This document shows, one piece after another, positions 7,470-35,496 of a DNA stretch of 64,000 nucleotides. The notes below the pieces were generated by a model. It was not told where the DNA came from. It worked only from the letters and a program-made list of their open reading frames with translations, and made no database searches. The stretch covers positions 88,042,001-88,106,000 of the forward strand of contig NC_086108.1 in NCBI RefSeq assembly GCF_963921235.1. Direction: 5' to 3'. Every line of letters begins with the position of its first letter. The stretch's first letter is position 1. The DNA is from Mobula hypostoma (Eukaryota). Both the position numbers and the translations under genes were made by a program.

Positions 7470-7561
7470 ACACTTGGGATTAAAGTATATTTGTTTTTAT
7501 CACTGTAATCTTTAGCACAATAATGGAGAGAAATTCAATTTTAAAATCCCATTTAATGTGA

Positions 7562-8799: not shown

Positions 8800-8940
<141 letters not shown>

Positions 8941-9019
8941 TCAAACTTGAAATCTGAAGCAACATACAGGCTTCGAAATTCAAATCACAGTGGGTCAAAA
9001 CTCAGGAATGAAACAAACT

Positions 9020-11578
9020 GCAGCACCAAGGTCCCAACACACTCAGCCACTACTATACTACAATAAGGATTGCCTACCATTCCATGCCTAGACCGCTTTT
9101 TGAGAAATCTGATCACTTGGCTGTCCTTCTCTCTTACGCAAGGCAGAGTAGTGGCTACAGGTTTGCTTTGAGTCAGTGGACTGTACTGTGTTCAAGGGTT
9201 CATCAGAGGATTTAAATGAATATACCACAGTTGTCACGGACTTTATAAAAGCAGTCATAGACAAGTTTGTGTCCACAAAATCATCAATCTTCTCCAACCA
9301 GAGGCCTGAATGAACCAGGAAATGCACAATCGGCTAAGGGCCAGATCAGTCACGTTTAGGTCTGGTGACCAAGATACAAAAGGTCCAGGTACAATCACTG
9401 GAAAGCCATCTCACATGCAAAGTGGCAACTCCGGACCAAACTTGAATCTCTGAGGGATGCTCACCAGCTATGGCAGGGCTGGAACGCTATTACCTTTTAC
9501 CAAGTGAAACTCTTTCAAAGTGAACCCACGGAAAGCATCCGGCACCGATGGGATACCTGGCTTACTGCTGAAGACCAGTGCTGATCAACAGGCTGGAGGG
9601 TTCACCGTTATCTTTAACCTCCCTCTTCAGCAGCCTGAGGTATCCACCTGCATCAAGCAGATTTCGATTATACTGGTGCCCAAGAAGAATATGGTAAGTT
9701 GCCTCAGTGACCATTTTCCAGTAGCACTTACATCCACCTTGATAAAGTGCTTTGAGAGGTTGGTGATGAAATATATTATCTCCTCCCTGAGAAGTGACTC
9801 AGATCCACTCCAATTTGCCAACAAGCACAACAGATCCATAACAAATGCCATTTCATTGGCTATTCGCTTGATCCTGGATTATCTAGATAGCAAAGAAAAT
9901 ACTTCCAGGATGGAATGGCTTGTGATATGAAGAGCGTTTGTTGGCTCTGGTCCTGAATTCACTAGAATCCAGAAGAATGATGGGTGACCTCATTGAAACC
10001 TATCAAATTGTGAAAGGCCTTGATAGAGTAGATATGGAAAGGATGTTTCCTGTGGTAGGAGAGTCTAAGACCAGAGGACACAGTCTCAAAATAGGAGAGC
10101 AGCCTTTTAGAACGGAGATGAGGAGGAGTTTCTTTAGCCAGAGAGTGGTGATCCTGTGGAATTCTTTGCCACAAGCAGCTGTCTTTACGTCTATTTAAGG
10201 CACAGGTTATAGATTCTTGATTGGTCAGGGCATGAAGCAATATGGGGAGAAAGCAGGAGATTGGGGCTGAGAGGAAAGTTAGTTCAGCCATGATGAAATG
10301 GCAGGACAGATTTGATGGGCCAAATGGCCTAATTCAGCTCCTATACTATATCTTATGGTCAAAGATGCATACATCAGGATGCAGTTTATTGACCATAGCT
10401 CAGCATTCAATACTATCATCCCCTCAAAACCAATCAATAAGCTTCAATATCTTGGCCTCAATACCTCCTTGTGCAATTGGATCGTCGATTTCTTCACTTG
10501 CAGACCCCAGTCAGTTTAGAATGGCATCTCCTCCACGATCTCCATCCGCACAGATGCCTCACAAGGCTGTGTGCTTAGTTTTATACTCTAGTCGCTTTGC
10601 TCTTATGACCATGAGACCAAGCACGACTCCCATGCCACATTCAAGTTTGCTTTCACCACTGTCACTGGCCAAATCAAAGGTGGTGATGAATCAGCATATA
10701 GGGAGCTTGACTCAAAATCTGCCTGAGTCGTGCCGCAACAACAACCTCTCAGTCAACGTCAGCAAGACTCAGGAGCTGATTATTTGGGAGGAGGAAACTG
10801 GAGGTCTATGAGCCAGTCCTTATTGGGGAATCAGAGGTGGAGAAGGTCAATAACTTTAAATTCCTCAGTGTTATAACTTCAGAGGACTTGTACTGGGTCC
10901 AGCACGCAAGTGCCGTTATGAATAAAGCACGGCATCACTTCTACTTCCTTCGACATTCGTGAAGATTGGGCATGTCATCTAACACTTTGACAAACTTTAA
11001 TAGATCTCTGGTGGAGAGTATACTGACCAGCTGTATCACAGCCTGGAATGGAAAATCCTACACAAAGTTTTGGACATGGCCCAGTCCATTGCCGATAAAG
11101 CCCTTCTGACCATTAAGCACATCTACACGGAGCACTGTCACAGGGAAGCAGCATCCATGACCAAGAACCATCACCACCCAGACCATGCAGCCATCAGGAA
11201 GAAGATACAGGGCCTGAGGACTCACACCACCAGGTTCTGGAACAGTTATTACCCCTCAACCATCACGCTCTTGAACCATTGGGGATAACTTCATTTGCTC
11301 TATCACTGAACGGTTCTCACAAACTATGGACTCACTTTCAAGGACTCTTTGATACTTATTGTTTATTTATTTACTATTATTGTTTTATTTTTAAAAAATT
11401 TTGTATTTGTACAGTTTGTTGTCTTTTGCACATGGGTTGTTTGTCTTGTTGGGTGCAGTCTTTCATTAAATCTATTTTGTTTCTTGGATTTACTGTAAAT
11501 GTCTGCAAGAAAATGAATGTCAGGATTGTATATGGTGACATGAATGTACTTTGATAATAAATTTATTTTGAACTTTGA
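9020..11578 (+). mobile_element. Degenerate Rex1/Babar-like LINE with RT remnant, interrupted by a CR1 fragment
   Basis: KASGTDGIPG..LKTSADQ.AG.FT.IFN...ILVPKK...PVALTS..IKCFERLV; 3' tail gataataaattta.tttgaactttga shared with several other copies. Confidence 0.85.
9897..10359 (+). mobile_element. CR1-like LINE 3' fragment nested in the Rex1-like LINE
   Basis: RRMMGDLIETYQIVKGLDRVD...TRGHSLK...FFSQRVV..WNSLP; caaaga duplicated at 9891-9896 and 10360-10365. Confidence 0.85.
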
Positions 11579-12720
11579 AAGAGCAGTTAATGAACAAGGA
11601 TTAAAATGGCCAATTCAAGCAAAAGCTCAGCATTAAGCTTGCAGGCTGAATGAGTCATTCTGCAGAGCCATAATCATCTGCTTCCCTTGGGTCTTCCCAG
11701 CATAATCCTTTTCCTCTTTTGTGATAGGGTTCACTTTTGTCCTCATCTTCCATTCCACCAGCCAATCACCTTTTTATATTAGTGCCCCTTCAATCAGTCT
11801 CCTGTGCTGTTTATATTTATTCATTTTCATCTCCTATCTTTTGTGCCTTTAGACTTGCATAGAACTTGTAAGCTCTAATTTTATCTGGTTGTGGCAGAAG
11901 GTTATTGATGTATTAACTTTCTTTATAGTTGCTGTCTGATGTGCTGAGTATTTCCAATATTTTCTACGCCCCTTCACACAGCAAACTACAAACCCATGGT
12001 TACATGCCCAACACAGCAAAGTCTTTTTCATCCAGTGGTCTACCATGACACATAATAAATCAGCTAACGGCGATGCTCTATCCACTTTGCTTTTAAACAC
12101 ATGCTCACATTTTCAAACCTACATCAACTCAATATGCAAAGACCAGACTTTGTAGTTAACTGCAGGCATTCACAAGCACACCCAAATAGCTTCTGCACAT
12201 AATACTGGTGCACATGGACCACGTATCCAGAACATAGTATCTTACCATATAGATGTATGTAAACCTATAGAAAGCAAACACATGCCATACAAAGTCATGC
12301 AAAGTATATAAATTGGATGGCTCCAATAGAGGCATGTGGAGGAATTTAAATTTGGCTCTTTATAGACACCCACTTAACACAAATGTCTCCATATATTCTA
12401 AACAATTACTGGGGAGGAACTGGGTGGGGATATGCTTCTACTTGTCTCATAAAGTCTTCTACTTCCTTTTCAAACATGCGAGCCAAAGTGCATGACTAAC
12501 TCTCACCCGCTGATTGAAATGTGGGCTGCCTTGCACAACTCTGGATGAGGGATTGTTGCTCTACCTGACACATTTGGGATTGGGGAGCACGGGCAGGAAG
12601 CAGCCATCTATAAGTGGGAAGAGGAGAGAAATTACTTCACCTAGATGTTTGTAATCCTTTAGAATTTGGTCTGTGGAGCTCTCTCCCTCAAAAACCAACT
12701 GGAACCAGAGTCTTTGAATA

Positions 12721-12920
12721 CAGTACTGTGTAAAAGTCTTAGGCTAAGTCTTTCCAGTTACCAAATAAAACTTACTACTGCTGAGCTAATACAAAGCTAA
12801 TTACTCATATTTCCGTTTCCCAACAACCTTCCGATTTTAGCCCAAACACTGTACTGTGCGACAGTCTTAGGTACCCTAGCCATATATAGTATATGTGTCT
12901 AAGATTTTTGCACAGTACTG
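12721..12920. mobile_element. Tc1/mariner-type MITE
   Basis: TIRs cagtactgtgtaaaagtctt / aagatttttgcacagtactg flanked by TA; related TIRs at ~30954-31020 and ~33177-33210. Confidence 0.75.
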
Positions 12921-13463
12921 TAGATAGAGTCTTGATACTCAAAGGAATGAAATGTTACCCAAGGTGGACACGGATATGGAGTTGAAGTTACAATCAGATC
13001 AACTATGTCTTTATTATTTGGCAGAACAAGACTGAGGGGCCGAGTGGCCCACACATGACCCTCATTCATACATTTACTCCAGAGGTTTGGATGCTTGGTT
13101 TTGGAGTAGAATCAAACTGAGACTGATTGATTTTTGAATTTAAGAGCAAAAAAAAAGATATAGGGAATGGACGGAAATACTGTGTTTTATTTATTCGTAA
13201 CTGAAATGCTGACCAGGCGAAAAGAAAGCACTGGCTGGACCATGGTGCTATGTATCAGACAATCTCCTATCCAGTGAGTATTCCATGATTTGCCAATTTT
13301 CATATTTCCCATGTACAACAGGTGTGTATACAAGCTCATTCTTGGTGCAGTTCATGATTCTCAGATGTACGCAGGTCTGCAGCAAATAACACCCATAGCG
13401 TGCAAAACACTAACTCTACCAAGCTCAGATTTCCTCTGCACCCCCCTCAAAGCTTTTCCTCAC

Positions 13464-13654
13464 CTGCTTCTCACTCAGATACTGCATTCCTTTCGTGACA
13501 TCAGATGCAAACTGGAGCAGCTGCTGAGAGGTCAGCGTTGACGCAGTTCCGTGCTCTCTTGCAAACACTGGATCTGTCTCCAAAACTCTGCTCTTTCGTA
13601 AGAAGTCCAACAGATTTCCATAAGGGGCATATTCAATAGCAATGTACAGGTAAC
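13464..13654 (-). CDS. tie1: Tie1 kinase exon, hinge + kinase insert (191 nt)
   Basis: [64 protein letters not shown]. Confidence 0.97.
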
Positions 13655-14919
13655 CTGCTCATACAAGAGATGCAGTTAAATAATTATACTTGAACCTGAT
13701 AACTCCTTTTGATAGATAGCTAGATGCTTTACGATATCCTTATTTTAGTTTTTATTTTGCAAAATCTTTGCTCTCTCCTTATGTATATACTGTAAGCTGA
13801 TCTTATCTATATAAGTATATAACCACATAACAATTACAGCATGGAAACAGACCATCTAGGCCCTTCTAGTCCGCACCGAACTCTTACTCTCACGTAGTCC
13901 CACCGACTTGCACTCAGCCCACCCTCCATTCCTTTCCTGTCCATATATCTATCCAATTTAACATTAAATGACAACAGAGTATGGCCATACTCAATCAGTT
14001 ACTTGTGCATTGAGTTTTATAGGATTGCTTTTGTATTTATATTTATTGTGTTCTGATGCTTATTGTGTTTTTTTCACGTTGCATCAGATCTGGAGTAACA
14101 ATCACTTTGTTCTTCACACTCGTGTACAGAAGAATGACAATGGACAATCTTGAATCTTGTGTCTTGATCTTCAACCCGATACCCAACTTTTGACCTAGTA
14201 ACTCCTGCACGCCTCAGAACATAGAACAGTATGGCACAGGAACAAACCCTTTGGCCCATAATGCTGTGCTGAACCAATTAAATTAGTAACCAAATGGGCA
14301 ACTGAACTAATCCTTTCTATCTACACAACGTCTATATCCTTCCATTTTCCTCACATTCACGTGCCTACCTGAAAGTCACTTAAAAGTCTCTAATGTCTCT
14401 GCCTCTACCACCACCCCAGGCAGTGCATTCCAGGCACCTACCACTCTGTGTAAAAAAAAAACTTGCCCCTCACATCTCTTTTGAAATTAACCCCTTAACT
14501 CTTCTTAACTCTTAATTAACCCCTCATCCTATTCATTCATCAATCTAAAGAGTAAATTCTATAGATTTCAAAGCTACTCTTTCAACAATATAAACCTTTT
14601 ATTTTAAAGCACCTGATACTCATTCTGAGCTCCAGTAGGATCCCTGTCAAGTCAAATAGAATTGAACTAAATGATTGGGTATGTGGCCAATGCAGCAGTT
14701 ATCAAAGAGGATAATTATCTTGGGTGATGAGAGTGACAAGCACAAGAGAGAGAATTTCCTTGCTGCCCACACACTACCACAGTATCCAATGGGGTTTCAG
14801 GAAGTACGGGCAGTCCCCACGTTAGGTAAGGGTTCTGCTCCTGCCAATGTCTCTGAGTTAAAAACATCTGTTTTCTTCAGTAACCCACATATTAGTCTAC
14901 ATACAATTTCTATAGCTTA

Positions 14920-15335
14920 GACCATAAGGCACAGGAGCAGAATTAGACCATGCAGCCCATTGAATCTACTCTGCTATTCTGTCATGGATAATTTATTATC
15001 CCTCTCAACCCCATTCACCTGCCTTCTCCCCATAACTTGTAACACCCTGACAAATCAAGATCCCATCAACCTCTGCTTTAAATATGCCTAATGACCTGTC
15101 TCCACAGCCATCCCCAGAATCACCATGCTCTGGCTAAATAAATTCCTCTTCATCTCTGTTATAAATAGATGTTCCTTTATTCTGAGGCTGTGCCCTTTGG
15201 TCCTTTACTCCCACACTATAGGAAACATCATCTCCACACCCACTCCACTCTATTTAGGCCTTTCAACATTTAATAGGTTTCAATGAGATCTCCACCCCCC
15301 CCACCCACCTTTATTCTTCTAAACTCCAGCGAGCA
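14920..15335 (-). mobile_element. CR1-like LINE 3' fragment
   Basis: Reverse-complement similarity to 22630-23040. Confidence 0.75.
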
Positions 15336-15896
15336 AATCTTTCATTTCATCAAATATTCACCCAAACTCAATTCCAAAAATAAATAAATGGAACATTTAC
15401 TGTATTACATTGTTAATAAAGTACATGAACTTATCTTTACTGTCTTGAAAAATTCTTTAAAAATTTATGGGGGAAATTTACATAGAGTTAGATTTGCACA
15501 GTTCAAGTCTCCTGTAACCCAAAAAGCTGTTGAATTGGATATTTCTATGTATATTCTGTAGAATGTACATAACTGTAGAATCCTGTGAGATACACTTTCT
15601 GTATTTAATCAGCATAAAGGCTGCTGTGGGAAACTCCTCAGATGAAGAGAGTTAATATTTCAAGTGTTGTTTAGCTTTCACCAAAATGGTGACCTGAAAC
15701 ATTAACCCTCTCTCCATAGATGCTGACTGGTCTTCTGTGTGTTTCCAGCATTTTCTGCTTCTGTTTTCAAAAATTTTCGTTTTTATTTGAAATTACAGAG
15801 CTGGAATAATTAGCTAGAATCCCTTCATAGTGCTGAGTCCTGTATTCACTTTACTTTTACCTTACGAAGCAACTTTGGCAGTTTTTGAATTCCTAC

Positions 15897-16007
15897 CTCT
15901 GTTCTCACAGGCCCCCAGTAGATTAATGATGTTGGGATGATGTCCAAGTTTACACAGAACCTCCAACTCTCCCGCAAAGTCCCTGTGATCATTCTCAGAG
16001 GCAAATT
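15897..16007 (-). CDS. tie1: Tie1 kinase exon (111 nt)
   Basis: [37 protein letters not shown]; cacag/gtagga flanks. Confidence 0.97.
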
Positions 16008-16224
16008 CTGTGCAAGTTACAATAGAATAATGTTACATATATTTTACAATGACATCCAATAGTAGCTGCTTACAGGTGCTTTAGCAATAACCATGAAGAA
16101 AGTATCCTTGTGCATAGTTACAGAACAAGGTACTTCACATAAACCTTTCACCATTCACCAACCAAGGAAATAAACCACAATCATTATTCAAAAGCACACA
16201 GTCAAGAAGCCTGCAAAAGGTTTA

Positions 16225-16745
16225 TCTAATGTACTGTGGAGAGCATTCCAATTGGCTGCATCACTCTCTGGTATGGTGGTGGAGGGGGATGGTGGGGGCT
16301 AATGCACAGGATTGAAGTAAGCTTCAGAGAGTTGGAAGCTTAGCTCCATCACGGGGAATAGCCTCAGTAGTATCCAGGACATTTCCAAGGAGTGATGCCT
16401 CAAAGAGGCGGTGTCCAACATTAAGGACCCCAATCACCCAGGTCATGCCTTGCTTTTCTTGTTCTTATTGCTACTATTAGGAAGGAGGTACAGAAGCATG
16501 AAAGCACACACTCAGCAATTCAGGAACAGCTTCTCCTCTGCCATCCAACTTTTGAATGGACATTGAACCTCACTACTATCTATTTCTATTTTTGCACTCC
16601 TTATTTAATTTAACTTATATACTAAATCATACATAATTTACTGTAGTTAACATTTTTTCTCTATTATCATGTATTGCATTGTACTACTGCTGCAAAAATA
16701 AATTTCATAATGTATGCCAGTGATATTAAACCTGATTCTGATTTC
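16225..16745 (+). mobile_element. Rex1-like LINE 3' end
   Basis: Similar to ~25365-25727 and ~58980-59315; ends taaacctgattctgatt. Confidence 0.7.
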
Positions 16746-17906
16746 ACAATGAAAAACAAGAGCTGGGATAACCTCAGTAATTTCATTAATTTCCATATTT
16801 TCCTTATGAGGCAGAAGGCAATGATTTGTCTCATCAAATCTATGCCAACTCAGACAGCAGTCCCACCAATCCCATTCCTAAACTACTTTTTTCCTGAAAC
16901 GTATTCTCCCTGCATTCTCATCCAGACCATCTGATTCTGATGAAAGGTCGATGACCCTGACTAGATAACTTCTGTTTTTCTCATAACAGATGATGCTTGC
17001 CCTGCTGAAAGTTTCCAATTTTCATAACTCTAGAACTTAAATACTCTGCTTTTTGATTATCAAATACAGTTAAATCAATTCATTAAACTGCAAATGATTT
17101 GTAACTTATTTTTCTCTCTTGGAACAGCCTACCATAATAGAAAATAAAACTCTCCTTCATTGAATTCAATGGGAGTAGTGCATGGCCACCAGGATGGACT
17201 AAACTGCTCAGAAACTTCAGAAATTTAGTACTTAGGAATCCAATGTCATTGCACAGTCAGCAATTTATGACTGTGGACCTGTCAGTTAAATTCGGGATAT
17301 CTGATTCTATTCGTTGCAGAGGCACATTCACATGGAAACTGCTGTCACATCTCAAGAGAATCCAACACAAAAAAATTGCCTTAAAATATTCTGTGATACA
17401 CTTTAGAATTAACTTGGTCCATTTTGATTAATACAACTAAAATAGGTTATTATATTAAAACAAATATTTTAATTCAATTCTAATTTACCACTTCAGAGGA
17501 ACTGAATTTTAAATTACTAAACACGTCATTATTTGGTAATTATTTAAAGATATAGTATCATTTTTCCAGGTCTGTTGCAGCTAATCCCTTAACACAGTTT
17601 TACTCAAAACCTTTTGAAAGTATGCCTACTGTTACCATTGTAATTAAAGATCCATTTTAAATGCTCCTCATAGGACCATTAATTACACTGACTCTAAAAA
17701 TGATTAATTCACTCCAGGAGTGTGGACTGTTAAAATAAGAGTGGATAGTGAAGACCTGAGTGAGTTGAATGCTATATTTGCTCAGAATTCCACAGCTATC
17801 TTAAAATTCAGCTAGTTAGACCTGAAAATTGGAATCGCCATCAACAAAAGCCAACTGAGTAGAAACTCAAAACAATACATGCTGATTTTGTACATTAAAT
17901 AGATAC

Positions 17907-18117
17907 CTTTCAGCATTTTGATCGCAGCATTCATCTTCAGCCCATCCTTTTTAATTAAGGCTTTGATCACTTGTCCAAAATTTCCTTCTCCAATAACATC
18001 CTCAAATTTAATGTCATCCCATTCTAAGATGGGGTAGGTGAGGGGCTCAGGCTGGGGTTTTGGTCGACGTGTGAGCGTCAGAGTTCCAGAGTTAAACTGA
18101 AGGACAGTCTCTTCACC
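17907..18117 (-). CDS. tie1: Tie1 exon, juxtamembrane + kinase N-lobe (211 nt)
   Basis: [20 protein letters not shown]...IGEGNFGQV...NAAIKMLK; Gly-rich loop and catalytic Lys; KMLK is TIE1-type (TIE2 has KRMK). Confidence 0.97.
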
Positions 18118-19113
18118 CTTAGAACAAACATACAAAACAACTGGTTACCTCAGTGTAGACTTTATGAGGTTCTTTGGCTAAAGCAGGCTATAACACCATA
18201 TCTAGGCAGAGACAAACATGGTTCAGAAACTACATTTTCTGTCCTGGGTATTATTCTGTCATGATTAAACATCCTATACTTATCTTGTTCTACTTCAGTG
18301 TACTATGTAATGATTTGATCTGTATGAACAGTATGCAGGACAAGCTTTTTAATGTTCCTTGGTGTATGTGACAATAATGAACCAATTCCAATTATGAAAA
18401 TAATTTCAAATGAAAACTATCCCATTTCCATCAAATATATTAAGAGCTTTAAAAAATCTGCAGATGCTGGAAATCTGAAATAAAAACGGAAAATACCTGA
18501 GTTGCTGATCAGCTCAGGATTTGTATATTGCGAGAGAAAGAGAGTTACTGACTTAAGTAGATGTCCCTTCATCTTGAAAAATGAGAAAGCAAAGGTGTTT
18601 AAAATAGCACAGAAAGGAGGTGGAGGGGTGGAGAGAGCAAAAGAACGAGAGGGTTGTCCTTTCAAGCCAAATTAGAAGGTATAGGTCTGTACTTCCTGCA
18701 GTTTATATGAATGAGGGTGGACTTATTCAAATATATAAGATCCCAGAGAGGCTCGACAGAGTTAACGTTGAGATGTTTTCACTAGTGTGGAGGTTGCAAA
18801 CAAGGGGACTGAACTGCAAGGTAAGGGGTTGTTTATTTAAAACGAGGATGTGTGGAAAACTCTTCTCTCAGATGGTAGTGAATCTTTGGAAATCAGATTT
18901 AATGAACATCGAGATAGATAAATATTTGAAAGATGAAAGTATTAAGGGTTACAGGAAACCGGCACAGAAGAGTTGAGGCCAGCAGTGATCAGCCATAATC
19001 ATTTTGAATTGTTGGGCGGCTTTTAGTTTCCTGGTGACCCATTTTGGCTCCTATTTACTTTCATCTGTTTTTGAAAATTCAGATTTATTTATCACATGCA
19101 GTGAAATACATCA

Positions 19114-21092: not shown

Positions 21093-21283
21093 TGATCCAG
21101 ACTGGTAAGTGAAGGTTCGACGTCGGTGAAATAGAGTTTTCCGTATGCAGAAGAGGCCCAGGAGCGCCAAGAGGATGGTCATACAGGTGACAGATACTGA
21201 GGCCACAATGGCCATTAAGAGCTGCTGGTCACTTCTATGGGGTTTTTCCAAAGGTTCCGTTCTTCGAAACACACTTGATGTAG
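21093..21283 (-). CDS. tie1: Tie1 exon, stalk + transmembrane helix + juxtamembrane start (191 nt, phase 1-0)
   Basis: ...DQQLLMAIVASVSVTCMTILLALLGLFCIRKTLFHRRRTFTYQSGS; the RRRTFTYQSGS motif is TIE1-specific. Confidence 0.96.
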
Positions 21284-22327: not shown

Positions 22328-23040
22328 GGGACCTGGAAGTCCTTGTGCAGAACACTCAAAAGGTTAATTTGCAGATTGAGTTGGTGGTGAGAAAGGCAAA
22401 TGCAATGTTAGCATTCATTTCAAAAGGCCCAGAATACATGAGACTGTGGCATTATAACGCACTAGTGAGGTCTCACCTTGCGTGTTGTGAACAGTTTTGG
22501 GCTTGTCATCTAAGAAAAGATGTGCTGGCATTGGAGAGGGTTCAGAGGAGGTTCATAAGGATGATTCCAAGAATGAAAGGGTTATCATACAAGGAATGTT
22601 TGATGGCTGTGAGTTTGTACTCATTGGGAACTTAGAAGGATGAAGGGGGATCTCATTGAAACCTTTTGAATTTTGAAAGGCCTAAACAGAGTAGATGTGG
22701 CAAGGATGTTTCCCATGGTGAGGGAATCTAGGACAAGAGGGCATAGCCTCAGGATAGAGGGACATTCATTTAAAACAGAGATGTGGAGAAGTTTCTTTAG
22801 CCAGAAGGTGGTGAGTTTGTGGAATTTGTTACCACAGGCAGCTGTGGAGTCCAGGTTGTTAGGTGCATTTAAGGCAGAGATTGACAGGTTCTTGATTGGA
22901 CACGGCATCAAAGGTTACGGGGAGAAGGATGGGAAGTGGAACTGAGGAGGGGAAAAAATGATTAGCCATTATTGAATAGTGGAGTAGACTCGATAGGCCA
23001 AATGGGCCAAATTCTGCTCCTATGTCTTATGGTGTCTTAT
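22328..23040 (+). mobile_element. CR1-like LINE, 5'-truncated
   Basis: KANAMLAFI...LERVQRRF.RMIP.MKGL...TRGHSLRI...WNLLPQAAVE; tcttatgg tail. Confidence 0.88.
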
Positions 23041-23461
23041 AAAATCTCTTTGACCAAGTTCAAAGTTCAAAGTAAATTTATTGTCAGAGTTACAATATTC
23101 TACATTGAGGCTTATTTTCTAACAGCCATTAACAGTAGAGCAAATAAATATAATAGAATCAATGAAAAACTACACACAATTTCATGTGATTCTTCCTTCT
23201 CTTTCCATCCTGATGTCAAATTTAACCTTCTGTCTAATGTTTTTTTTCCCACATTTCCTTATGATGTAGACAGAAGTCATTACAGCCCATCAAGTTTATG
23301 CTGGCTCACAAAGCAATCTCACTCACAAAATAATTTCCCCTGTAATCTTTTCTCTTCACATCTTCTTCAATTCCCATCAGGTTCTGTCACTCACCGTATA
23401 GCCAAGGGGTGACTTACAGTGGCCAACATCACTTGACTAACCAGCACACCCTTGGGATAGA

Positions 23462-23840
23462 GTCATAGAAAAGTACAGCACAGAAACAGGCTATTAGGCC
23501 CATCTAGTCCATGCCGAACCATTTAAGCTGCCTACTCCCATCGACCTGTACCGGGACCATAGCCTCCATACCCCTACCATCCATATACCTATTCAAACTT
23601 GTCTTATACCTTGAAATTGAGCTTGCATGTACCATCTGTGCTGGTAGCTCATTCTCCACTCTCACAACTCTCTGAATGAAGAAGTTTCCCCTCATGTTCC
23701 CCTTAAACTTTTCACCCTTCACCTTTAACCCATGACCTCTGGTAGTAGCTCCGCATAACCTCAGTGGAAAAAGCCTGCTTACATTTACCCTATCTATACC
23801 GCTTATAAATTTGTATACCTCTATCAAATCTCCTCCCAAT
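23462..23840 (-). mobile_element. CR1-like LINE 3' fragment
   Basis: GDLIEVYKF..GIDRV...TRGHGLKVKGEKFK..MRGNFF.QRVV. Confidence 0.85.
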
Positions 23841-24181
23841 CAATGTAGGACAAAACAGGAGCACCTGGAGGAAACCCATGGGGTCAAAGGAAGAACATGC
23901 AAGCTACACACAGAAAGCACTAGAGGAAAGAACCTGGGTTGCTGAACATGTAAGGCAGTAGCTCTACTACTCCAGAATCACTCCAGAAGTTCAAAGTATT
24001 GGAGATGAAAGCAAAGTTTAATCTGATGCCCTTTAATACATGCACCATTTGAATGCTATTAGTATAGTTTCTGCCTTGCATTATTTGTTGCAAGTGATTC
24101 ATTACCCTGCATACTGTGTAGGCAAGTGTCTATATGAATTTAGATGCAGACCATAATCAGTTGAGTCTTTAAATCTCTTAC

Positions 24182-24484
24182 CTGGTGGAGTTGCTGCAGT
24201 GCGAAGCTCTTTCATTGGGTTTGGGTGGCTTTCACCCATATTGTTCATGGCTACAACCTCCACTAGGTAGGGGGTTTCGGGCCGCAACCCACGCAAGACG
24301 TGCTCTGAGGTTGGCGTCTCCGCCAAATTGATCGTTGTCACTTCAGGAGATGTTGTGGCCCCATAGACTTTACACTTTATAACCACAGAGGAGATGGCAT
24401 GCTTTGGAGGTACCACCCAGGAGATCACCGCAGATGTGTCGGTAATGTTTGATACCTTAACATCATAAGGTGCTGGAGGAATTG
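24182..24484 (-). CDS. tie1: Tie1 exon, additional fourth FN3 domain (TIE2-FN3-3-like; 303 nt, phase 1-1)
   Basis: SIPPAPYDVKVSNITDTSAVISWVVPPKHAISSVVIKCKVYG...HVLRGLRPETPYLVEVVAMNNMGESHP...LRTAATPP; open frame, pyrimidine-rich tract + ccag acceptor, CAG/gtaaga donor. Confidence 0.9.
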
Positions 24485-25940
24485 CTGGATTTCAAAATAA
24501 AGAAAACAATGATTTGTTTCATTTCCCAAGGACTCCTTTAGGCTTCCCTAGACTCCAGGGATGTTGCTCCAGTAATCTTGGGATGTGGGTCTCAGTGACG
24601 AGGCCAGCATTTATTGTGCATCTCTGATTGTCTGGGAGTATGGAAGGTAAACTACTTCAGTCCTTCCGGTGGAAGATCATAAGACATAGAAGCAGAATTA
24701 GCCTATTCAACCCACTGAGTCTGCTCCAAGAAAGCACACCAACAGGGGTTTTGGGGAGGGGAATGGTAAGGCTTTTGGATGACTTGGATGCAATGATAGT
24801 GAGAAATAGCAATATAATTCCTAGTCAGGTTAATGCAACATGGAGAAGGATCTGTAGGTGGTGTTGATGTTATGAACCTATGTTTTCCATGGTGTTAATG
24901 ATCTCAGCTTGAGAGTGACCTAGGCATAGGCTATTAAAAAGGCAAAACATGGAATTATCTCTGAAGTGAAAAGCTCTTGTGAGCACTCTGATGAACAGAA
25001 CTTATCTCCAGCACAACCAATTCAGGGAGCAATCACACAGGCGCAGGAAGAGAGCCAGACAAATTGGGGACTTGGTATTGAGCGTTCTCCTTGTTTTATG
25101 TGAATTAAAGACCCTGGTTGTACTTTGGACTTTATTGTCCAATTTCTGCCAGCAACAAGCACAAATGATAATGGTACCAAAGAGCATCTTGCACAGAGGG
25201 AGTTATTATACCAGTGTGGATATTCATACCACTAGAGACCCAGCTGGGTCTGGCTACCAGTTACAAGGCAGAGAATGACCTGGAGGGTTGTGGGCAGTTG
25301 ATTGTGGTGGAATGGATGCTTTGTCCCCTTTGGAAGAAACACAAACGTGGTCTTCCCCGTTCGATTATGGGCACTAGCTTCCCCACCATTGAGAAAATTT
25401 TCAAAAGGCACTGCCTCGAGAAGCAGCATCAATCATTAAGTCCCCTCACTATCCAGGACATGCCCTCTTCTCATTACTACCATCAGCGAGGAGATATAGG
25501 AGAATGAAGACACACATTTAACATTTCAGGAACAGCTTCTTCCCCTCTGCCATCAGATTTCTGAATGGACAAAAAGCACTACCTCTCTTTTAACACTACT
25601 TATTTATTTTTATTTAATTCTTATTGTAGCTTATAGTATTTTTCCCTTTGTCTATTGCTCTGCACTGCTGCCACAATACAAGAAATTCCATGACATGCAT
25701 CAATGCTAATAATCTTGATACTGATTCCTTTGTAAAGAGACCTCCTTAAAATTTTTGAGAACTCAAGGGTTCAGGCCTTAATCCCAACCCACCTATCTTT
25801 TTTTTTTGGAGTGATTGCTGGCTTTCAAGACAGACTGCAACAAATTTAATTTTCTTAACAGAATGTGAAAATTACCTAAAATAAAACACAAAGGGGTTCA
25901 TAAAGTGAGAATGCCAAAGGTGAGAAATCTGTACACTTAC

Positions 25941-26219
25941 AGTCACTGAATGTCCAGCACGTGATGGGAGCACTCCATTCACCTGCAACTTTAGACTGGG
26001 CACGGACGCGGAACTGATACAGTGTGCTTGGACTCAGATCCTGAATGGTCTCATTTCTAGCTGCTGTATCAATCCATCTGGGCTCACTGGGCGGTTCCAT
26101 CTGCTGGTACTCAATGGTATATTTGTTTATTTCCTTAGTGTTGAGAGGTGGCTGCCACTTCAAGCTTATGCTGGTCAGGGACAAGGGAGTGGCCTGGAGC
26201 TGTCTGGGAGATGGAGGAC
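25941..26219 (-). CDS. tie1: Tie1 exon, FN3 domain 3 (279 nt, phase 1-1)
   Basis: GPPSPRQLQATPLSLTSISLKWQPP...KYTIEYQ...PRWID...STLYQFRVRAQSKVAGEWSAPITCWTFSD; tgcag/gtaagt flanks. Confidence 0.93.
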
Positions 26220-26583
26220 CTGCACAGACAGAACCAACAGTTTCAATTATGTACCTCTGACTGTCAAACCGGGCACAGCCAGAGTACGTAAAACAGAATG
26301 GAGTACTCTCATACTGAACCAAGATTGGGGCGTTCCATTGGTTAGATATTTAAGCCTCTGCAGCTCTATGTAAGGTATTCTTTTGATGTACCTTGAGGAA
26401 ATTGGAAAATTGTCAAATGTATCATACACAAAGGATAGAAAACGCCAGAGAAACTCTGCAAGTTAGGCAGCATCTATGGAGGGGAATATTTTGAACCATT
26501 CATCACAACTGGGAAGGAACTGGACAAAAGCATTGAGGAAGTGCCTAGGGCAGGGCCACCGGAGTGCTCAGGATTGCCCCGCA

Positions 26584-27205
26584 GGAGCATCCAAGCCAAC
26601 GTCAGGGCAGCAGTGAGGGAGCATCCAAGCCAACGTCAGGGCAGCAGTGAGGGAGCATTCAAGCCAACGTCAGGGCAGCAGTGAGGGAGCATCTGGTCAA
26701 ACATCAGGACAGCGTTGAGGGAGTGCCTGGGTCAAATTCAGAACGGCAGTGAGGGAGCACCTGGGCCAACATGAGGGCAGCAGTGAGGGAGCATCTGGGC
26801 CAACATCAGGACAGTGATGAGGGAGCATCCAGGCCAGCATCAGGACAGCAGTGAGGGAGCGCCTGGACCAACATCAGGGCAGCAGTGAGGGAGCACCTGA
26901 GCCAACATCAGGACAGCAGTGAGGGAGCACCTGGACCAACATCAGGACAGCAGTGAGGGAGCACCTGGGCCAACACCAGGACAGCGGTGAGGGAGCACCT
27001 GGGCCAACACCAGGATAGCGGTGAGGGAGCACCTGGGCCAACATCAGGACAGCAGTGAGGGAGCACCTGGGCCAACACCAGGACAGCAGTGAGGGAGCAC
27101 CTGGGCCAACACCAGGACAGCGGTGAGGGAGCACCTGGGCCAACACCAGGACAGTGGTGAGGGAGCACCTGGGCCAACATCAGGACAGCAGTGAGGGAGC
27201 ATCCA
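26584..27205. repeat. 34 bp minisatellite, ~18 copies
   Basis: Unit gccaacatcaggacagcagtgagggagcacctgg; period confirmed at 26902/26936. Confidence 0.92.
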
Positions 27206-28934
27206 GTCTGACATGGGCAACAGGGAGGATCTCAAGTCAGGAGTAGGGGATTTTTGCTCAGCATCAGATCAGCACTGATGCAGCACATAACATCTCCTGC
27301 TGCTGTTTATCATTTATAATCAATCATGAAGGACCTCAATAGGATGAATACACAAAGCCCTTTTTCCCTAAGGAGCAGGAACCAAAAACTAGAGGACATA
27401 GGTTTAGGAAGAAAGGGAAGAGACTTAAAGGTGACCCCAAGACAACTTCTACACACAGACGATGATGTGTATGTGGAACGAGCTGCCAGAGAAAATGGCT
27501 GGGGTAGACAAATTAACATTTAAATTTGGACAGGAAAAGCTTAAAGGAATATGGTCCAAATGTAGAAAAATGGGATGACTTTAGATGGGCATCTTGGTCG
27601 TTATGAACATGTAGGTGCAAAGTATCTCTTTCCGTACTGCCTAACTGTACTCTTGCTTCTATGCCTCCAGATCTATCCGCCTGCCTGTATCAAACAACTT
27701 CTACCCACCTGCGGTGCAGCCCTGAGCCTCACATAGGTCTCATCAGACTTTTATGTGCCAGAACCCATAAAACTGGAATGGAACCAACTCATTCTCAATC
27801 TCAAAGAACTTCCTAAGATCAAAAGTAACACACACAACAACTGAGGTGGAGTAAAGAGCCAATATTTCCGGCCAAGACCCATTATCAAGGCTGCCAAAGA
27901 TTGACTAATCATGTATTCTGGACCTGAATTTAAGTCTTTGTTCCAACTGACTTGGCAAGTTCATCAGCTAAGCGCTGAATTAAGGCTAATACACAGAGAT
28001 AGGTGACTGTTTTAGAAAGACTGAGCATAAATCATAGTTAAATTTTCAACATAAGTAGGAAAGTTGGAAACGGGTTCAGAGGGTTCAAATCTGCTCCTAG
28101 TGAGAGGATGAGAGGCTTCTCTGTTTGCTGACCAATGAGAGCAAAATTGAATTGTTGCCGCTTCGTTTCTTGTTAGAATTTAAGGTCTGTAAGGAGTTTG
28201 TACACTTTTCCCATGACCAGGTGGGTTTCCTCTGGGTGCTCCAGTTTCCCCTGGGTGCTTCTACAAACCTCGCTGATTTGACTTGATGCAAATGACACAT
28301 TTCAATGTACGCTTCAATGTACATGTCATAAATAAAGTTAATCTTTAATCTTTAGAGTGGCCTGCACTATACAAGAATCATTGACAATTTAATTCAACGA
28401 GTAATGACCAGATGGCAGTTATGCTTCTGTGGCCGGGTTAAGATGACTTGTCTAGAAATTGTTCAGTCTCTTTCAGGTCGGTCACTAGACCTGCACCGTG
28501 ATGCTCGGTTTCACTGAGATTTCCTGAACATGTCAGCAAAGTTGGATAAAATAACGACTCTTTTTGCACACACAGATACCTGGCAGTTGTGCAGTTCCTG
28601 TCTGGAGTGCATGTAGAGTTAGCGGCTGCCAAGTTTCCGTCACGCAGTCTGCTTGGAAAGTCTAAAGGACCTTTCCACTGACAGCTGCAGCAGTGTCGGA
28701 AGAAGCTGCCGCGAAGGTGGGCTAGAGTACAGGGCGGTTGGGATTGTGGGGGGTGGGGGGGATGAGAGTATTAGGCAGCAACCAGTAATGAGTGTGCCCA
28801 TCCCCTCCATGTGATCCCATGGCTCCACTCGACTCCCATGCCATCTTTTCTCTGCATTTAGCTGAGATAATTCTGCTCTTGGAGCACTTGGTGCAGACAC
28901 TAGGTAATATACCCTAGCAGCACAGTGGCATTCT

Positions 28935-29140
28935 GGTGGTGTAGTGCCTTACAGCACCAACGACCTGGGTTCAAGTTCCCACCGCTCACTGCAAGGAGTT
29001 TGTACGTTCTTCCCATGACCGCATGGGTTTCCTCCAGGTGCTGCGGTTTCCTCCCACAGTCCAAAGATGTACGTTTAGGGTGAGTAGGTTAATTGGTTTC
29101 AGGGACGTAACAGGGCAGCACCGCCTCATTGGGCCTGGAG
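28935..29140 (+). mobile_element. V-SINE/HE1-like SINE (related copies at ~28185-28350, 41945-42250, 43765-44040; minus strand at ~20690-20850, 23840-23975)
   Basis: B-box-like gggttcaa followed by ggagtttgtacgttct.ccc.tgacc..gggtttcctcc.ggtgct.cggtttcctcccacagtccaaaga core. Confidence 0.7.
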
Positions 29141-29339
29141 GGCAGCCCCCCAAACACGAAGGACCCTCAACTTCATTAATGAAGTAACATAACATTAAAA
29201 GAAGAAATACATTAACATGGTCTACAAATGAATGACATCTTCAGTCCTTTCTCCTTCTGGTAGAAAAAAGTAGCCAGAAATATCTTCACTTTATTTTCTG
29301 TTAACTTGTAAGGAAGATCTAAGAACAATTCCAAATTAC

Positions 29340-29627
29340 CTGCATCCACTTTTACTAGAACCTTCTCTGATGGGCGCCCAAGGCTACCACAGTAGAATAC
29401 AATGACATCCACCTCATATCTGTGTCCAGGCTCCAGATTTCTGATCTCCGTGGATCGCACTGAGAAGGACTCCACTCGAACCTCCCTCTTAACAGAATTC
29501 TCAAGGTCAGTCACTCGGACGATGAATCCACTTCCATTCCCGTGATCTTTGGAAATATTCCAGCTGACGGAGATGGTATCTCTCTTCTTGGTCAAGACCC
29601 GGTCAATCTTTGCCACCACTGTGGGTT
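29340..29627 (-). CDS. tie1: Tie1 exon, FN3 domain 2 (TIE1-type; 288 nt, phase 1-1)
   Basis: EPTVVAKIDRVLTKKRDTISVSWNIS...GFIVRVTD...NLEPGHRYEVDVIVFYCGSLGRPS, aligning by eye with human TIE1 FN3-2 (LRVSWSL...GFLLRLWD...GLTPGTHYQLDVQLYHCTLLGPAS). Confidence 0.92.
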
Positions 29628-29859
29628 CTGAAGGAAGAATTAGTAGTTCATTTGGATGAAATATGCACAGTGAAAAGTGTGATATTGAAATATAAGGCTT
29701 CTGAAGGGAATGGATGGAGTAGCTGGGGAGAGAATATTTCCCCATCAGGATACATCTAGAATTAGGGGTCATTGTTTCAAGGGGATGGGAGTTGTCAACT
29801 CTTTAAGTCAGAGATAAGATCATGATCCTTTAGGATTCCATAAAGGCTGTCATGAAATA

Positions 29860-30660
29860 TATTCAAGCCAAGATGAGACCATACTTAGAATATTGGGTTC
29901 AATGCTGAAATTTATAAGGCATTGGTTCAAAGGTTCAAGGCATTGGTCAGGTCATAGTTGTGAGCAGTGTTGGGACCCTGATCTAAGAAAGGACATGCTG
30001 GCATTGGAGAGGGTCCAGAGAAAGATCATGAGGACAATCCTGGGAATGAAAGGTTAACATATGAGGAGTGTTTGAGGGCCCTGGGCCTGAACTTGCTGGA
30101 GTTTAGAAGAATGAGAGAGAATCTCATTGAAACTTATTGAATGTTGAAGGGCCTGGATAGAATGGACATGGCGAGGATGTTTCCTATTGTGAGGAGGTCT
30201 AGGACCAGAGGACACAGCCTCAGAATAGAGGGACATTCCTTCAGAACAAAGATGAAGAGGAATTTATTCATCACGTATGTCAGGAAAGCACTGGATCCTT
30301 TTTCCTGAGAGGAGTTTACAAAACTCAGGAGGGAGAATAAAAAGATGGACAGTTTGAATCATTTTCCATGGTAGGGATGTCTAAAACTACAGGGTTAAGG
30401 TGAGAGGGGAGTTACTTAAAGTTGACCCGAGGTGTAATTTTCCACTCAAAGTGTAGAAGGTAGTTGAATAAGCTGCTGGAATGAGTGGTAAAGGTGGGTA
30501 CAATGTTTGAAAGATAGTTGGACAGGCACTTGGTAGCAAAGATTTGGAGGGATATGGGCCAAACGCAGGCAAATGGGACTAGCTTAGGTAGGCACCTTGG
30601 TTAGCATGGGTGAATGGGGCTGATGGGTCTGTTTCCATGCCTTTAAGTTTATGACTCTAA
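29860..30660 (+). mobile_element. Two adjacent CR1-like LINE fragments
   Basis: Similarity to 22328-23040 and to the other CR1 3' ends. Confidence 0.7.
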
Positions 30661-31141
30661 GATAGTCATAGTTTAGAAAGGAGTCGAGTATAACATGGAT
30701 TGGGGTGCAAAGTGCTTCTGAACCCAAGATCATTATTGATTGTCAGAGCAGACTCAAGGGGTTTTGTGGTTTAATTCTTTTCCTATAGATGCTGCCTGGC
30801 CTGCTGCGTTCACCAGCAACTTTGATGTATGTTGCTTGAATTTCCAGCATCTGCAGAATTCCTGTTGTTTGCTCAGGAAAAGTAGGCATGGTTTCACCAA
30901 ATTGGAAATACAGCATTACCTCTGTAGAAAACATGCACGTTATGTAGCATTAGAGTACTGTGCAAAATTCTTAGACACATATAAATAGCTAGGATGCCTT
31001 AGACTGTTGCACAGGATTGTATTTGTCAATGTGGAGTGGAGTGTGAGTTTGTAAATCTACCGGGAACAAAGGATGATGCGAATATGCCAAATGCAGGCAA
31101 ATGGGACTAGCTTAGGTAGGCACCTTGGTTCAATATGCCAA

Positions 31142-32822
31142 AGAATGATGTAATGGACAAAATGGGAGGTGAGGACCTCGATAAAATCACTGTCACTAAA
31201 GAGTTAGTGATGAGCAAACTAGAGGGCCTGAAGGTAGACAAGTCCCTGGTCCTGATGGGATGCATCCCAGGGTGCTGAGGGAATTGGCAGAAGTTATAGT
31301 AGACGCATTAGTAATCATTTACCAAAATTCTCTAGACTCTGGGCAGGTCCTGGCAGACTGGAAGACAGCAGATGTCACACCACTTTTTAAAAAAGGATGT
31401 AGGCAAAAGACGTGCAACTATAGGCCAGTTAGCTTAACACCTGTAGCCGGGAAAATGCTTGAAGCTGACATTAAGGGAGAAATAGCGGAACATTTAGAAA
31501 GGAGTGATTCCATTAGACAGATGCAGCATGGATTCAGAAAGGGCAGGTCCTGTTTGACAAACTTACTGGAGTTCTTTGAGGACATAATGAGTGCAGTGGA
31601 TAGAGGGGAACAGGTGGATGTCGTATACTTGGATTTCCAGAAGGTGTTCGATAAGGTGCTGCACAAGAGACTTATAAATAAGATACAGATGCATGGAGTC
31701 AGAGGAAGTGTATTGGCATGGATAGTGGATTGGTTAACCAATAGAAGCAGAGAGTTGGTATAAATGGGAGTTTCTCCAGTTGGCAGTCAGTGGTGAGTGG
31801 GGTGCCGCAGGGGTCGGTGCGGGGCCCGCAGCTGTTTACCATTTACATTGATGATTTGGAAGAGGGGACTGAGTGTAACATAGCAAAATTTGCTGATGAC
31901 ACTAAACTGAGTGGAAAAGCAAATTGTACAGAGGAATGTGGAGAGTCTGCAGAGGGATATAGATAGGTTAAGTGAGTGGGCCAAGGTCAAGGTCTGGCAG
32001 ATGGAATACAATGTTGGTAAATGCGAGATCTTTGGAAGGAATAATAGAAGAGCAGATTATTATTTAAATGGTGAAAAATTGCAGCATGCTGTTGTGCAGA
32101 GGGACTTGGGAGTGCTTGTGCATGAATTTCAAAAAGTTGGCTTGCAGGTACAACAGGTTATTAAGAAGGCAAACGAGTGTTGCCCTTCATTGTTAGAGGG
32201 ATTGAATTCAAGAGCAGGGAGGTCACACTGCAACTACACAGGGTACTGGTGAGGCCGCACCTGGAGTACTGTGTGCAGTTCTGGTCTCCATACTTGAGGA
32301 AGGATATACTGACTTTGGAGCCAGTGCAGAGGAGGTTCACCAGGATGATTCCAGAGATGAAGGGGTTAACCTATGGGGAGAGATTGAGTCGCCTGGGACT
32401 GTACTCTCTGGAATTCAGAAGAATGAGAGGGGATCTTATAGAAACATACAAAATTTTGAAAGGGATAGATAAAATAGAAGTAGAAAAGTTGTTTCCATTG
32501 GTAGGTGAGACTAGAACTAGGGAATATTGCCTCAAAATTCAGGGGAGAAGATTTAGGACAGAGATGAGGAGAAACTGTTTTTCCCCAGAGAGTGGTGAAT
32601 CTGTGGAAATCTCTGTCCAGGGAAGCAGCTGATGCTTCTTCACTAAATATACTTAAGAAACAGTTAGATAGATTTTTACATAGTAGGGGAATTTAGGCTT
32701 ATGGGGAAAAGGCAGGTATATGGAGCTGAGTTTACGGACAGATCAGCAATGATCTTATTGAATGGCGGGGCAGGCCCAATGGGCCGGATGGCCTACTCTT
32801 GCTCCTATTTCTTATGTTCTGA
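31142..32822 (+). mobile_element. CR1-like LINE with frameshifted RT domain
   Basis: MHPRVLRELA...WKTADVTPLFKKG...NYRPVSLT...QHGFRKGRSCLTNLLEFFE...YLDFQK.FDKV.H; gccgcaggggtcg (PQGS) and tttgctgatgac (FADD). Confidence 0.92.
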
Positions 32823-33291
32823 TGAATGGTGCGAGTGGAGTGCCGTGGGAGGCATGTGGGACAGGTGGCAGAGAAGGAGTGCCAGGGGAAAGTGGGGGTG
32901 GAGCGGCTGCAGACACACCCAGCCCTGAGATACCAGGCAAGGTCATTTGATTCCAAACAATTGATTTATTGGTCATTACAGAATGTCTCTCTGGTGCTTC
33001 CTGCTCCCTCCCCTCTCTCTTCCCCTTTACCCAACATGGTTCCCCACTCATTGGCCTCTTCCCACTCTCAGTCCACAATAGAGACCCCTATCGGAATCAG
33101 GTTTATCATCACTCACATGTCAAGAAATTTGTTTTTTTCTGGCGGCAGCAGTACAATCCAAACCCAAAACTATGGCAGTACTGTGCAAAAGTCTTAGGTA
33201 CCCTAGCTATATACATTTGTGACACTATCCAATTTTGTTGAAGATGTATTAGCAACAGGCTCCATTCAGATAAGACTCTATATGTAACTAC

Positions 33292-33429
33292 CTGGGCAAT
33301 CCGTCTCCAAGATGGCATCAGGACCTGGGGGGCCCTCTCCTCCTTCTCCTGGGCGGGTGAGCTGTACCCGAACTAGGTAACGCGTTGAAGGCTTCAAATT
33401 CATTACAGTGATTGGTTCATTAGTATCAA
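33292..33429 (-). CDS. tie1: Tie1 exon, FN3 domain 1 C-terminal half (138 nt)
   Basis: [46 protein letters not shown], matching TIE1 [14 protein letters not shown]...TDCP; not in the ORF track. Confidence 0.94.
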
Positions 33430-34001
33430 CTGAAATAAAATAAAATATTTCTCAATTTTAGACTTATGAGAGACTGCAGATGCTGAAAATATTGAACAAC
33501 ACATACAAATTCTGGAGGAACTCAGCAGGTCAGGCAGCATACGACTCTAGGACATAGGAGCAGAATTAGGCCATTTGGCTCATCGAGTCTGTCTGTCACA
33601 TCTGTTATTTCCCTCCACAGATGCTGCCTGATCTGTTGAGTTCTCCTCAGCATTTTGTGTGTATTTCTCAATTTTAACCCAGGTATAATTCACCTGTATT
33701 AGTTAAACTACAACAGTGCCATTTAAGACGACTGAAGGGATCTGCTAACTTAGTTGTCATAATTCGTTATTTCTTGTTTCCAATGAACTGTCCATAGCAT
33801 CCCCAAGTTTTCCAGCATACAGAGAGCATACAAATAATACTTCTAATTCTGATTAAAGTATACCAAATAGGCAGGTTTTTCACAACTCCAATGACGATAT
33901 CATCGGGTTCCCTAAAGACAATTCCCTTTCAGGAATAGAAAGAGAAAGGTGGAAATGTGCTGGATAAATAGCAATACACGAGAGGCTTGCCATTATCTGC
34001 A

Positions 34002-34483
34002 GGCCAGGTCACTGGTCTGAGTGCTACTGGTACCATGTAACCTAGTACTACCTGTCACATGGTCGGGTGGTTGGAGACTAAACCGACTCCCCCACCAGGC
34101 TTGCCTGGTGAGGAGGGTGGCTAGACACCCTGCAGGACGAAAAACAAGACTTGTCAAAGGGCGGATGAATCCTCTCGTCGGGTCAACGGCCATCTAGCAA
34201 ACACATGCCGTGAAGCGCGGAAAGGGCATCCCTTGCATCGAAGCTTGGTCTGGCCATTCACTGCAACAGAACTTCCCCCAGCTGTCTTGGACCCCACCAT
34301 GCTGCTGGATCCGGGAGGGGATGTCGAGAGGGTGGGTCTGGACCTGTGCAACCCCCTACTCACCTAAAATCCACTCACGCACACGCTGTTCCTTTCTGAG
34401 GAGTGGGGAATCCTAAACCCCACTAACTGACTGAAAGGAACCATCATCATCCTATGGGATGGATAGCCAGAGAGAGAGAGAGA
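34002..34483 (+). mobile_element. ~480 bp non-coding retroposon with (GA)n tail
   Basis: 13 bp TSD gccattatctgca (33989-34001) / gccattgtctgca (34484-34496); GC-rich body. Confidence 0.7.
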
Positions 34484-35334
34484 GCCATTGTCTGCACGGT
34501 GACCTGCACTGACAGGGTGAAGAATCCAGATACTGGCAGAGTTTTATAGCCTACTAGACTCTCCAACTGGCCTGCCCTGTCTTAATTTTGCAGACATAGT
34601 GTTTCCCTCCTGTCAAGGCCATGTTCCCTACACCTACGTCAATTTTGTCTGGATCTGTGAGTCTTCTCATTTTTACCAGTACAGTGATTAGAATATTTAA
34701 TTCAGCAGCATAAAACAGCAGAACTTGCTGCAAAATATACTTGAGGGGAAACAAGAAGATAGGAAAAGAATTATTTATTTTGGAGACACTTGGACTCCGT
34801 GCTTTGTCTAAAACAACTGGAGCCAAGTTTTACATAAGTGACATAAGATAATAACAGAAAGTGCCATAAATAGTCAGCAAGTCAGGCTGCACTTGTGCAT
34901 GAGGACCAGAGTTAATACTTCAGGCTGAAGATCTTTCATCAGAACTCACATCAGTGACATTAGGAAACACTGAAACACACAGTATTAAATATTTGGAACT
35001 GTCTTTCACAAATAACAGCTATGTAATGACAACCATTAATCTTAAACAGGTAATTTTTGATTACATAAGATATTAACGTCAGATATGATCTCAGTGAATA
35101 GTGAAGCGATCTCAAAGGGTCAAGTAGTCTTCACTGGTTTCTTGTTACCAAAATTGCCAGCAGTCCACTAGAGGGTGTTCTTGTCAAACATTTTATCTGC
35201 TAATGCCCTGGCATATGGTTAATCAATTCAATTTCCAAAATTAACAATTTCTTCACTTAAATTCACCAATGATTTACACAGTCTTTTATCCCCGGCAGTT
35301 TTCAGTTCATACTGACTCCTTTAAAGTAACTCAC

Positions 35335-35496
35335 CTACTATTGTAGACCATTGTGTCCGACTGTCATTTGGCTTGTAAAGGAGTTTAACTGATTTCACTG
35401 GTCCATCTCCAGTGAAGTTTTCAATATTTGGATTCACCTTTAGTTGCTTGCTCTTCTTTTCCAAGATACTTGGGATATTTACTGGAGTAGGAGGAA
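35335..35496 (-). CDS. tie1: Tie1 exon, FN3 domain 1 N-terminal half (162 nt)
   Basis: VPPTPVNIPSILEKKSKQLKVNPNIENFTGDGPVKSVKLLYKPNDSRTQWSTIV, with the Tie GDGP motif; gtgagt donor. Confidence 0.93.

Follow-up and report, generated by a model that had tools for sequence, protein, structure and literature searches.

The FN3 stalk of a ray Tie1 gene and its likely place in the ancestry of TIE1 and TIE2

How many FN3 domains make up the stalk of a Tie receptor, and do the domains that carry the same number in TIE1 and TIE2 correspond to each other? The accessible text of PMC13722417 gives the textbook Tie1 three FN3 domains, and reviews, in the parts available to us, describe TIE1 and TIE2 both with three. 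In this paper we looked at a 64,000-nucleotide stretch of the Mobula hypostoma genome (contig NC_086108.1, positions 88,042,001 to 88,106,000; hereafter the window), in which a Tie1 gene on the minus strand has four FN3 units, U1 to U4, instead of three. Our analysis indicates that this is very probably an ordinary gene with the likely ancestral four-FN3 stalk of vertebrate Tie, and that Tie2 and the Tie1 of bony vertebrates probably each lost a different exon from it.

The initial annotation of the window had proposed four intact FN3 units in one frame, and this was borne out by splice sites, phases, Pfam and AlphaFold. The units lie on five exons:

35335..35496, minus strand: first exon of U1 (phase 1-1, 162 nt)
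33292..33429, minus strand: second exon of U1 (138 nt), with a conserved Cys at its end
29340..29627, minus strand: U2 (288 nt), a class found in Tie1 and lamprey Tie and absent from Tie2, with a Cys in the F-G loop
25941..26219, minus strand: U3 (279 nt), the likely counterpart of bony-vertebrate Tie1 Fn3 and of Tie2 Fn2, with a W-T-x-S-D linker at its end
24182..24484, minus strand: U4 (303 nt), the likely counterpart of Tie2 Fn3, absent from bony-vertebrate Tie1 and a cassette exon in rays

All five exons have an AG acceptor, a GT donor, a length that is a multiple of three and phase 1-1, and when joined they form one open frame with zero stops. The Pfam fn3 cut-off is passed by U2, U3 and U4 (34.8, 61.6 and 48 bits), while U1 is spread over two exons, the second of which scores 20.8 bits with Pfam fn3. 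For a near-identical ray Tie1, AlphaFold predicts four successive all-beta (beta-sandwich) domains with a pLDDT (predicted local distance difference test) of ~76-91, followed by the transmembrane (TM) helix. The TM and kinase regions had been read as TIE1-type, which agrees with the Tie1-type TM exon and with a tree of the EGF-Ig3 and kinase regions without the FN3 columns, where the gene groups with Tie1 and not with Tie2 (99/96). A separate tie2 locus is found in the same genome on another contig (C12).

Correspondence of the FN3 domains

The initial annotation had matched U4 to the third FN3 domain of TIE2, and U3 both to the third of TIE1 and to the second of TIE2. A search of PDB returned the same partners: human TIE2 Fn3 for U4 (64.9 bits), and human TIE1 Fn3 (5N06; 46.5 bits) and human TIE2 Fn2 (38.2 bits) for U3. 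U2 had no Tie match in PDB, and as the sets contained no full-length mammalian TIE1, bony-vertebrate Tie1 took the place of human TIE1 Fn2 in its comparison. With domain profiles built from bony vertebrates only, U2 scored 78 bits (Tie1 Fn2), U3 104 bits (Tie1 Fn3) and 61 bits (Tie2 Fn2), and U4 97 bits (Tie2 Fn3), while the 500 shuffles made of every unit stayed at or below 9.1 bits. Foldseek ranked TIE2 Fn2-3 structures 1-5 for a single-sequence model of U4.

When the bony-vertebrate profiles were compared with each other, the third position of Tie1 scored 94.8 with the second of Tie2 and 22.1 with the third, while the two second positions scored 31.4; the Tie1 Fn2 profile had no good partner (31.4 or less). 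U4 and Tie2 Fn3 were reciprocal best profile matches, with an hhalign score of 179.5 and at most 27.9 elsewhere. Trees of 105 and of 46 domains gave four classes. U4 was placed with the third position of Tie2, the fourth of lamprey and the last domains of tunicate and amphioxus (support 99; 83/60 in the vertebrate-only tree), the third position of Tie1 with the second of Tie2 and the third of lamprey (98/87), and the second position of Tie1 with the second of lamprey (97/96). A clade of all third-position domains was rejected (p=4.4e-6). Based on these comparisons, human TIE1 Fn3 is likely the counterpart of TIE2 Fn2, and TIE2 Fn3, the dimer domain, likely has none in bony-vertebrate TIE1. The ray U3-U4 pair is thus matched by Fn2-Fn3 of TIE2/TEK (5MYA, 5MYB, 5UTK, 7E72), in which U2 is missing, and the earlier view that the numbered domains of TIE1 and TIE2 are not equivalent holds.

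Alternatively, U4 could have arisen by a lineage-specific tandem duplication of U3, or it could be a relic in an intron that is left unspliced. This has in its favor only that the two units are adjacent and that U4-skipping isoforms exist. A tree in which U4 is constrained to be a U3 duplicate was rejected (p=1.15e-5), as the initial annotation expected; the U4 profile scored 100 bits on tie2 Fn3 of M. hypostoma and below 0 on U3; and U4 is spliced to U3 and conserved over 20 species. The splicing, the profile scores and the constraint test refute this option, to which we give practically no probability.

Distribution of the units and their losses

We looked at the 120 listed of 841 Tie1 protein matches and, in a second survey, at the 120 listed of 336 matches. 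Tie1 models with four FN3 domains were found in 20 cartilaginous species (7 batoids, 12 sharks and 1 chimaera), and RefSeq models of 1222-1228 amino acids already have all four (e.g. XP_062921090.1, XP_059839980.1 and XP_007885274.1). Between ray and chimaera the identity of U1 to U4 is 75, 61, 65 and 73%, so that U4 is conserved like its neighbours. Among the 120 matches listed, all 102 non-cartilaginous Tie1 (coelacanth, paddlefish, gar, bowfin, teleosts, amphibians, reptiles and birds) have U1-U2-U3. They share EGF, Ig3, U1-U3, TM and kinase with ray Tie1, whereas the extra membrane-proximal U4 of the ray occurs in 0/102. The three-FN3 description is therefore valid for the Tie1 of bony vertebrates only and not family-wide.

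In Tie2 the missing unit is another one. U2 was found in 0/127 Tie2 proteins, from chimaera to mammals, of which 52 have U1-U3-U4, one has U4 twice (P0300) and 74 are shorter models lacking one unit. The tie2 locus of M. hypostoma has U1, U3 and U4; a six-frame scan for a decayed U2 gave no signal above 0 bits over 100 kb of it, and no second U2 locus was found in this genome. Lamprey Tie (RefSeq 'Tie-1') has the same four units in the same order, with a low-complexity insert in U3, in 9/9 cluster members from four species.

A four-FN3 ancestor with reciprocal loss, of U4 in Tie1 and U2 in Tie2, was already suggested by the initial annotation and is supported by the architectures, trees and profiles. 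The losses were, however, assigned to mammals, and this timing fails: in Tie1, U4 is already missing from each of the non-cartilaginous groups listed above, from coelacanth to birds, and in Tie2, U2 is already missing from shark, chimaera and M. hypostoma. U2 would have been lost from Tie2 on the jawed-vertebrate stem, before the split of cartilaginous and bony fishes, and U4 from Tie1 on the bony-vertebrate stem. Because each unit lies on symmetric phase-1 exons, deletion of one would keep the frame. The mechanism would be an ordinary one, the loss of symmetric exons after a gene duplication.

Two small traits track the domain losses and are, as relics, new here. The first is a Cys pair. The Cys that ends U1 is present in 102/102 bony-vertebrate Tie1. 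The Cys in the F-G loop of U2 is present in 13/13 Tie1, in lamprey and in 4/5 invertebrate second domains; this alignment-based count replaced a looser regular-expression count (68/102). From the sequences we infer a U1-U2 disulfide. In Tie2, where the partner domain is gone, the U1-terminal Cys is kept in 5/28 proteins, all from sharks (a sixth scripted row is a Cys at a different position), and M. hypostoma tie2 also keeps it unpaired. The second trait is the linker Trp that ends U3, found in 20/20 cartilaginous Tie1 and 26/26 Tie2 (23 counted, and 3 mis-parsed rows assigned by eye). It remains in 7/102 bony-vertebrate Tie1, those named being non-teleost or early-branching ray-finned fishes, as would be expected had U4 once come after it.

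Invertebrate deuterostomes have Tie-like kinases with further FN3 classes in the stalk, and in tunicate, with six FN3, and amphioxus, with five, the last stalk domain is of the U4 class and scores 53 bits on the bony-vertebrate Tie2 Fn3 profile. The extra FN3 domains of Clavelina (P0135, six) and Branchiostoma (P0159, five) pair across both species, suggesting a six-FN3 chordate ancestor and a stepwise shortening of the stalk from 6 to 4 to 3.

Several points weigh against a four-FN3 ancestor with two losses. The architectures were read from predicted proteins, the genomic scan covers the M. hypostoma genome only, and full-length mammalian TIE1, lungfish and bichir Tie1 and hagfish fall outside the sequences examined. 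One further lamprey model (P0129) lacks U2, which leaves four FN3 domains in 9/10. The constraint test does not reject a clade uniting all second-position domains (p=0.104), the ~100 columns of an FN3 domain make deep tree forks weak, and a U4-only tree has no resolved base. The lamprey gene forms a trichotomy with Tie1 and Tie2, and its placement tests are uninformative. Since this gene cannot be placed, the case for U2 in the common ancestor of Tie1 and Tie2 depends on weak matches in invertebrates (15-23 bits for second domains on the Tie1 Fn2 profile) and on the Cys signature; the amphioxus model has no U2.

These last points would fit another history, in which the Tie1 line, with the lamprey gene as a Tie1 orthologue, acquired U2, Tie2 never had it and only Tie1 lost a domain. 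Yet in two tunicates, a hemichordate and a crinoid the second domain has the F-G loop Cys and domain 1 ends in a Cys, the second tunicate domain joins the U2 class (support 81), and the five shark Tie2 and the ray tie2 hold an unpaired U1-end Cys. We consider a gain of U2 improbable. A history to which we give even less weight is that U4 of cartilaginous Tie1 was acquired or refreshed from Tie2 by exon copying or gene conversion. U4 is indeed nearest to cartilaginous Tie2 Fn3 (51.5%, against 42.5% to bony-vertebrate Tie2), and, a further point against the two-loss history, a tree constrained in this way is not rejected (p=0.143 and 0.327). However, lamprey Tie has a U4 at the same position with 47% identity to Tie1 U4, and in the unconstrained tree Tie2 Fn3 forms a single group that excludes Tie1 U4 (91/97). 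Four-fold sites between Tie1 U4 and tie2 Fn3 of M. hypostoma are saturated like those of other exons (8/25), which argues against recent conversion, and the linker Trp persists in some bony-vertebrate Tie1, as it should if U4 had been there. The loss of U2 from Tie2 and of U4 from bony-vertebrate Tie1 stays the preferred reading.

Other features of the locus

In the window the EGF, Ig3, FN3, TM and kinase exons follow each other (tblastn) as in the Tie order Ig-Ig-EGFx3-Ig-FN3 repeats-TM-tyrosine kinase. The first two Ig domains fall outside it, and Pfam was run on a close relative (P0006) for the full order. The exons match batoid Tie1 proteins, with Mobula closest, at 95-100% per high-scoring segment pair, alignment overhangs included. 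Besides the FN3 units the gene has:

61754-61891, 57787-57927 and 45023-45151, minus strand: upstream EGF exons (approximate tblastn bounds)
43289-43435 and 37814-37960, minus strand: Ig3 exons (approximate tblastn bounds)
21093..21283, minus strand: exon for the stalk, TM helix and juxtamembrane region, of Tie1 type
8800..18132, minus strand: four kinase-domain exons (~17908-18114, 15895-16008, 13464-13655 and 8800-8922; approximate tblastn bounds)

No kinase exons beyond these four were found in the window by tblastn. Below the last of them, at 1-7477 and probably inside a Tie1 intron, is a near-perfect tandem duplication with a period of ~3.97 kb (98.9% identity over 3.5 kb), either a recent duplication or an assembly artefact. 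The U2-U3 intron contains a 34-bp minisatellite of ~18 copies (26584-27205). The second exon of U1 is also matched by three loci with 51-57% over 37 residues (C2:26162722, C1:163814746 and C2:190496039), which are likely FN3 domains of other receptors.

Splicing of U4 and the dimer interface

Is U4 used in the transcript? Four sequencing runs, guessed to be probable RNA (4/22 listed), were mapped onto window positions 20900-26450, where their cover of unique DNA is limited to exons. In run X2 (record 15) one contig passes from U4 (24182-24484) directly into U3 (25941-26224), joining 24484 to 25941; this is the junction that the initial annotation had proposed as a check, and U4 is spliced. In runs X1 and X3, U4 is a contig of its own (362 nt, with ~30-nt overhangs) and the neighbouring contigs end at the U3 donor and the TM acceptor. 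A separate U4 contig with neighbours that end at the exon edges is the pattern of a cassette exon, which the initial annotation missed. Contig depths of 35 for U4 against 89-105 for its flanks (X1) and 38 against 66-103 (X3) are only a hint of partial inclusion. In run X6 a contig (24182-24512) covers U4 and 28 nt of the upstream intron, from pre-mRNA or an alternative acceptor. Against this use of U4 it counts that the U4-to-TM and U4-skip junctions are not among the joints listed and that the RNA origin of the runs is a guess, none of those listed being recorded as RNA.

The protein models hold both forms. One 4.9-kb assembly contig (P0425) encodes the whole 1223-amino acid protein with four FN3 domains, and U4-skipping Tie1 models were found in 8 batoid species, in one assembly contig and in one chimaera model; the alternative shark models seen skip U2 or U3 and not U4. 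Rays thus produce a long Tie1 and a second form that lacks U4 through exon skipping and has the bony-vertebrate TIE1 architecture; this skipping by splicing is new here. Single FN3 exons are also skipped in many amniote Tie2 isoform models (P0317-P0403), 62 of which are without a U3-class domain, and in-frame FN3 skipping is therefore common in Tie-family annotations. Fixation of the loss of an already skippable exon could, as a conjecture, be a plausible route by which bony vertebrates lost U4.

What might U4 do in a Tie1? In the accessible part of PMC8560823, the TIE2 dimer is described as an antiparallel sheet of the Fn3 C' strands with V685, V687, Y697, K700 and E703, the Fn3-Fn3' interface including a K700/E703 salt bridge, and the Fn2-3 regions of TIE1 and TIE2 are called poorly similar. 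Human TIE1 Fn3 is reported to be monomeric in solution by small-angle X-ray scattering (available text of PMC13722417, citing Leppanen 2017). A simple reason is offered by the renumbering: one Fn3 is monomeric and the other dimeric, and the regions are poorly similar, because they are different domains. In Tie1 U4 the hydrophobic pattern of the C' strand is retained (position 687 Ile in 20/21, 689 Leu in 21/21) and position 697 is Tyr in 13/21, but position 703 is acidic in 0/21, against 23/29 in Tie2, and the K700/E703 pair is not kept. The initial idea of a TIE2-like interface would thus apply in part, to the strand pattern and not to the pair; judging by these residues, the strands may still pair through their backbones, or U4 may be a better partner for Tie2 than for a second U4. 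A complex prediction for two U3-U4 copies, with no alignment and no controls, gave a score of 0.05 and a mark of 0.32, which speak neither for nor against pairing.

The four-FN3 exon is already known as an annotation in RefSeq, while its evolutionary and structural consequence was not found in the accessible text of papers. Full-text searches returned no statement on the number or equivalence of Tie FN3 domains; they did not cover the 2017 structure papers (Leppanen, Moore), Seegar 2010, Jiang 2020 on zebrafish tek or supplements (e.g. PMC4898815), where a prior mention is possible.

Models of the TIE1/TIE2 heterodimer are reportedly made by substituting TIE1 Fn3 for TIE2 Fn3, and such models would align non-equivalent domains. 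The proper match for TIE1 Fn3 would be TIE2 Fn2, which alters how the two stalks are compared. Some teleosts lost tie2 (available text of PMC10129328), and these would have zero U4-class domains. The two ray isoforms, one containing U4 and the other lacking it, offer a natural comparison for the effect of a dimer domain on TIE1 signalling. One tentative option, which we find possible but doubtful, is that U4 is an ancestral pre-dimerisation module; bony-vertebrate TIE1, having lost it, would be left with a monomeric last FN3 and rely on TIE2 or SVEP1 to cluster, while splicing in rays would still toggle Tie1 between a form with TIE2-like pairing and the bony-vertebrate form.

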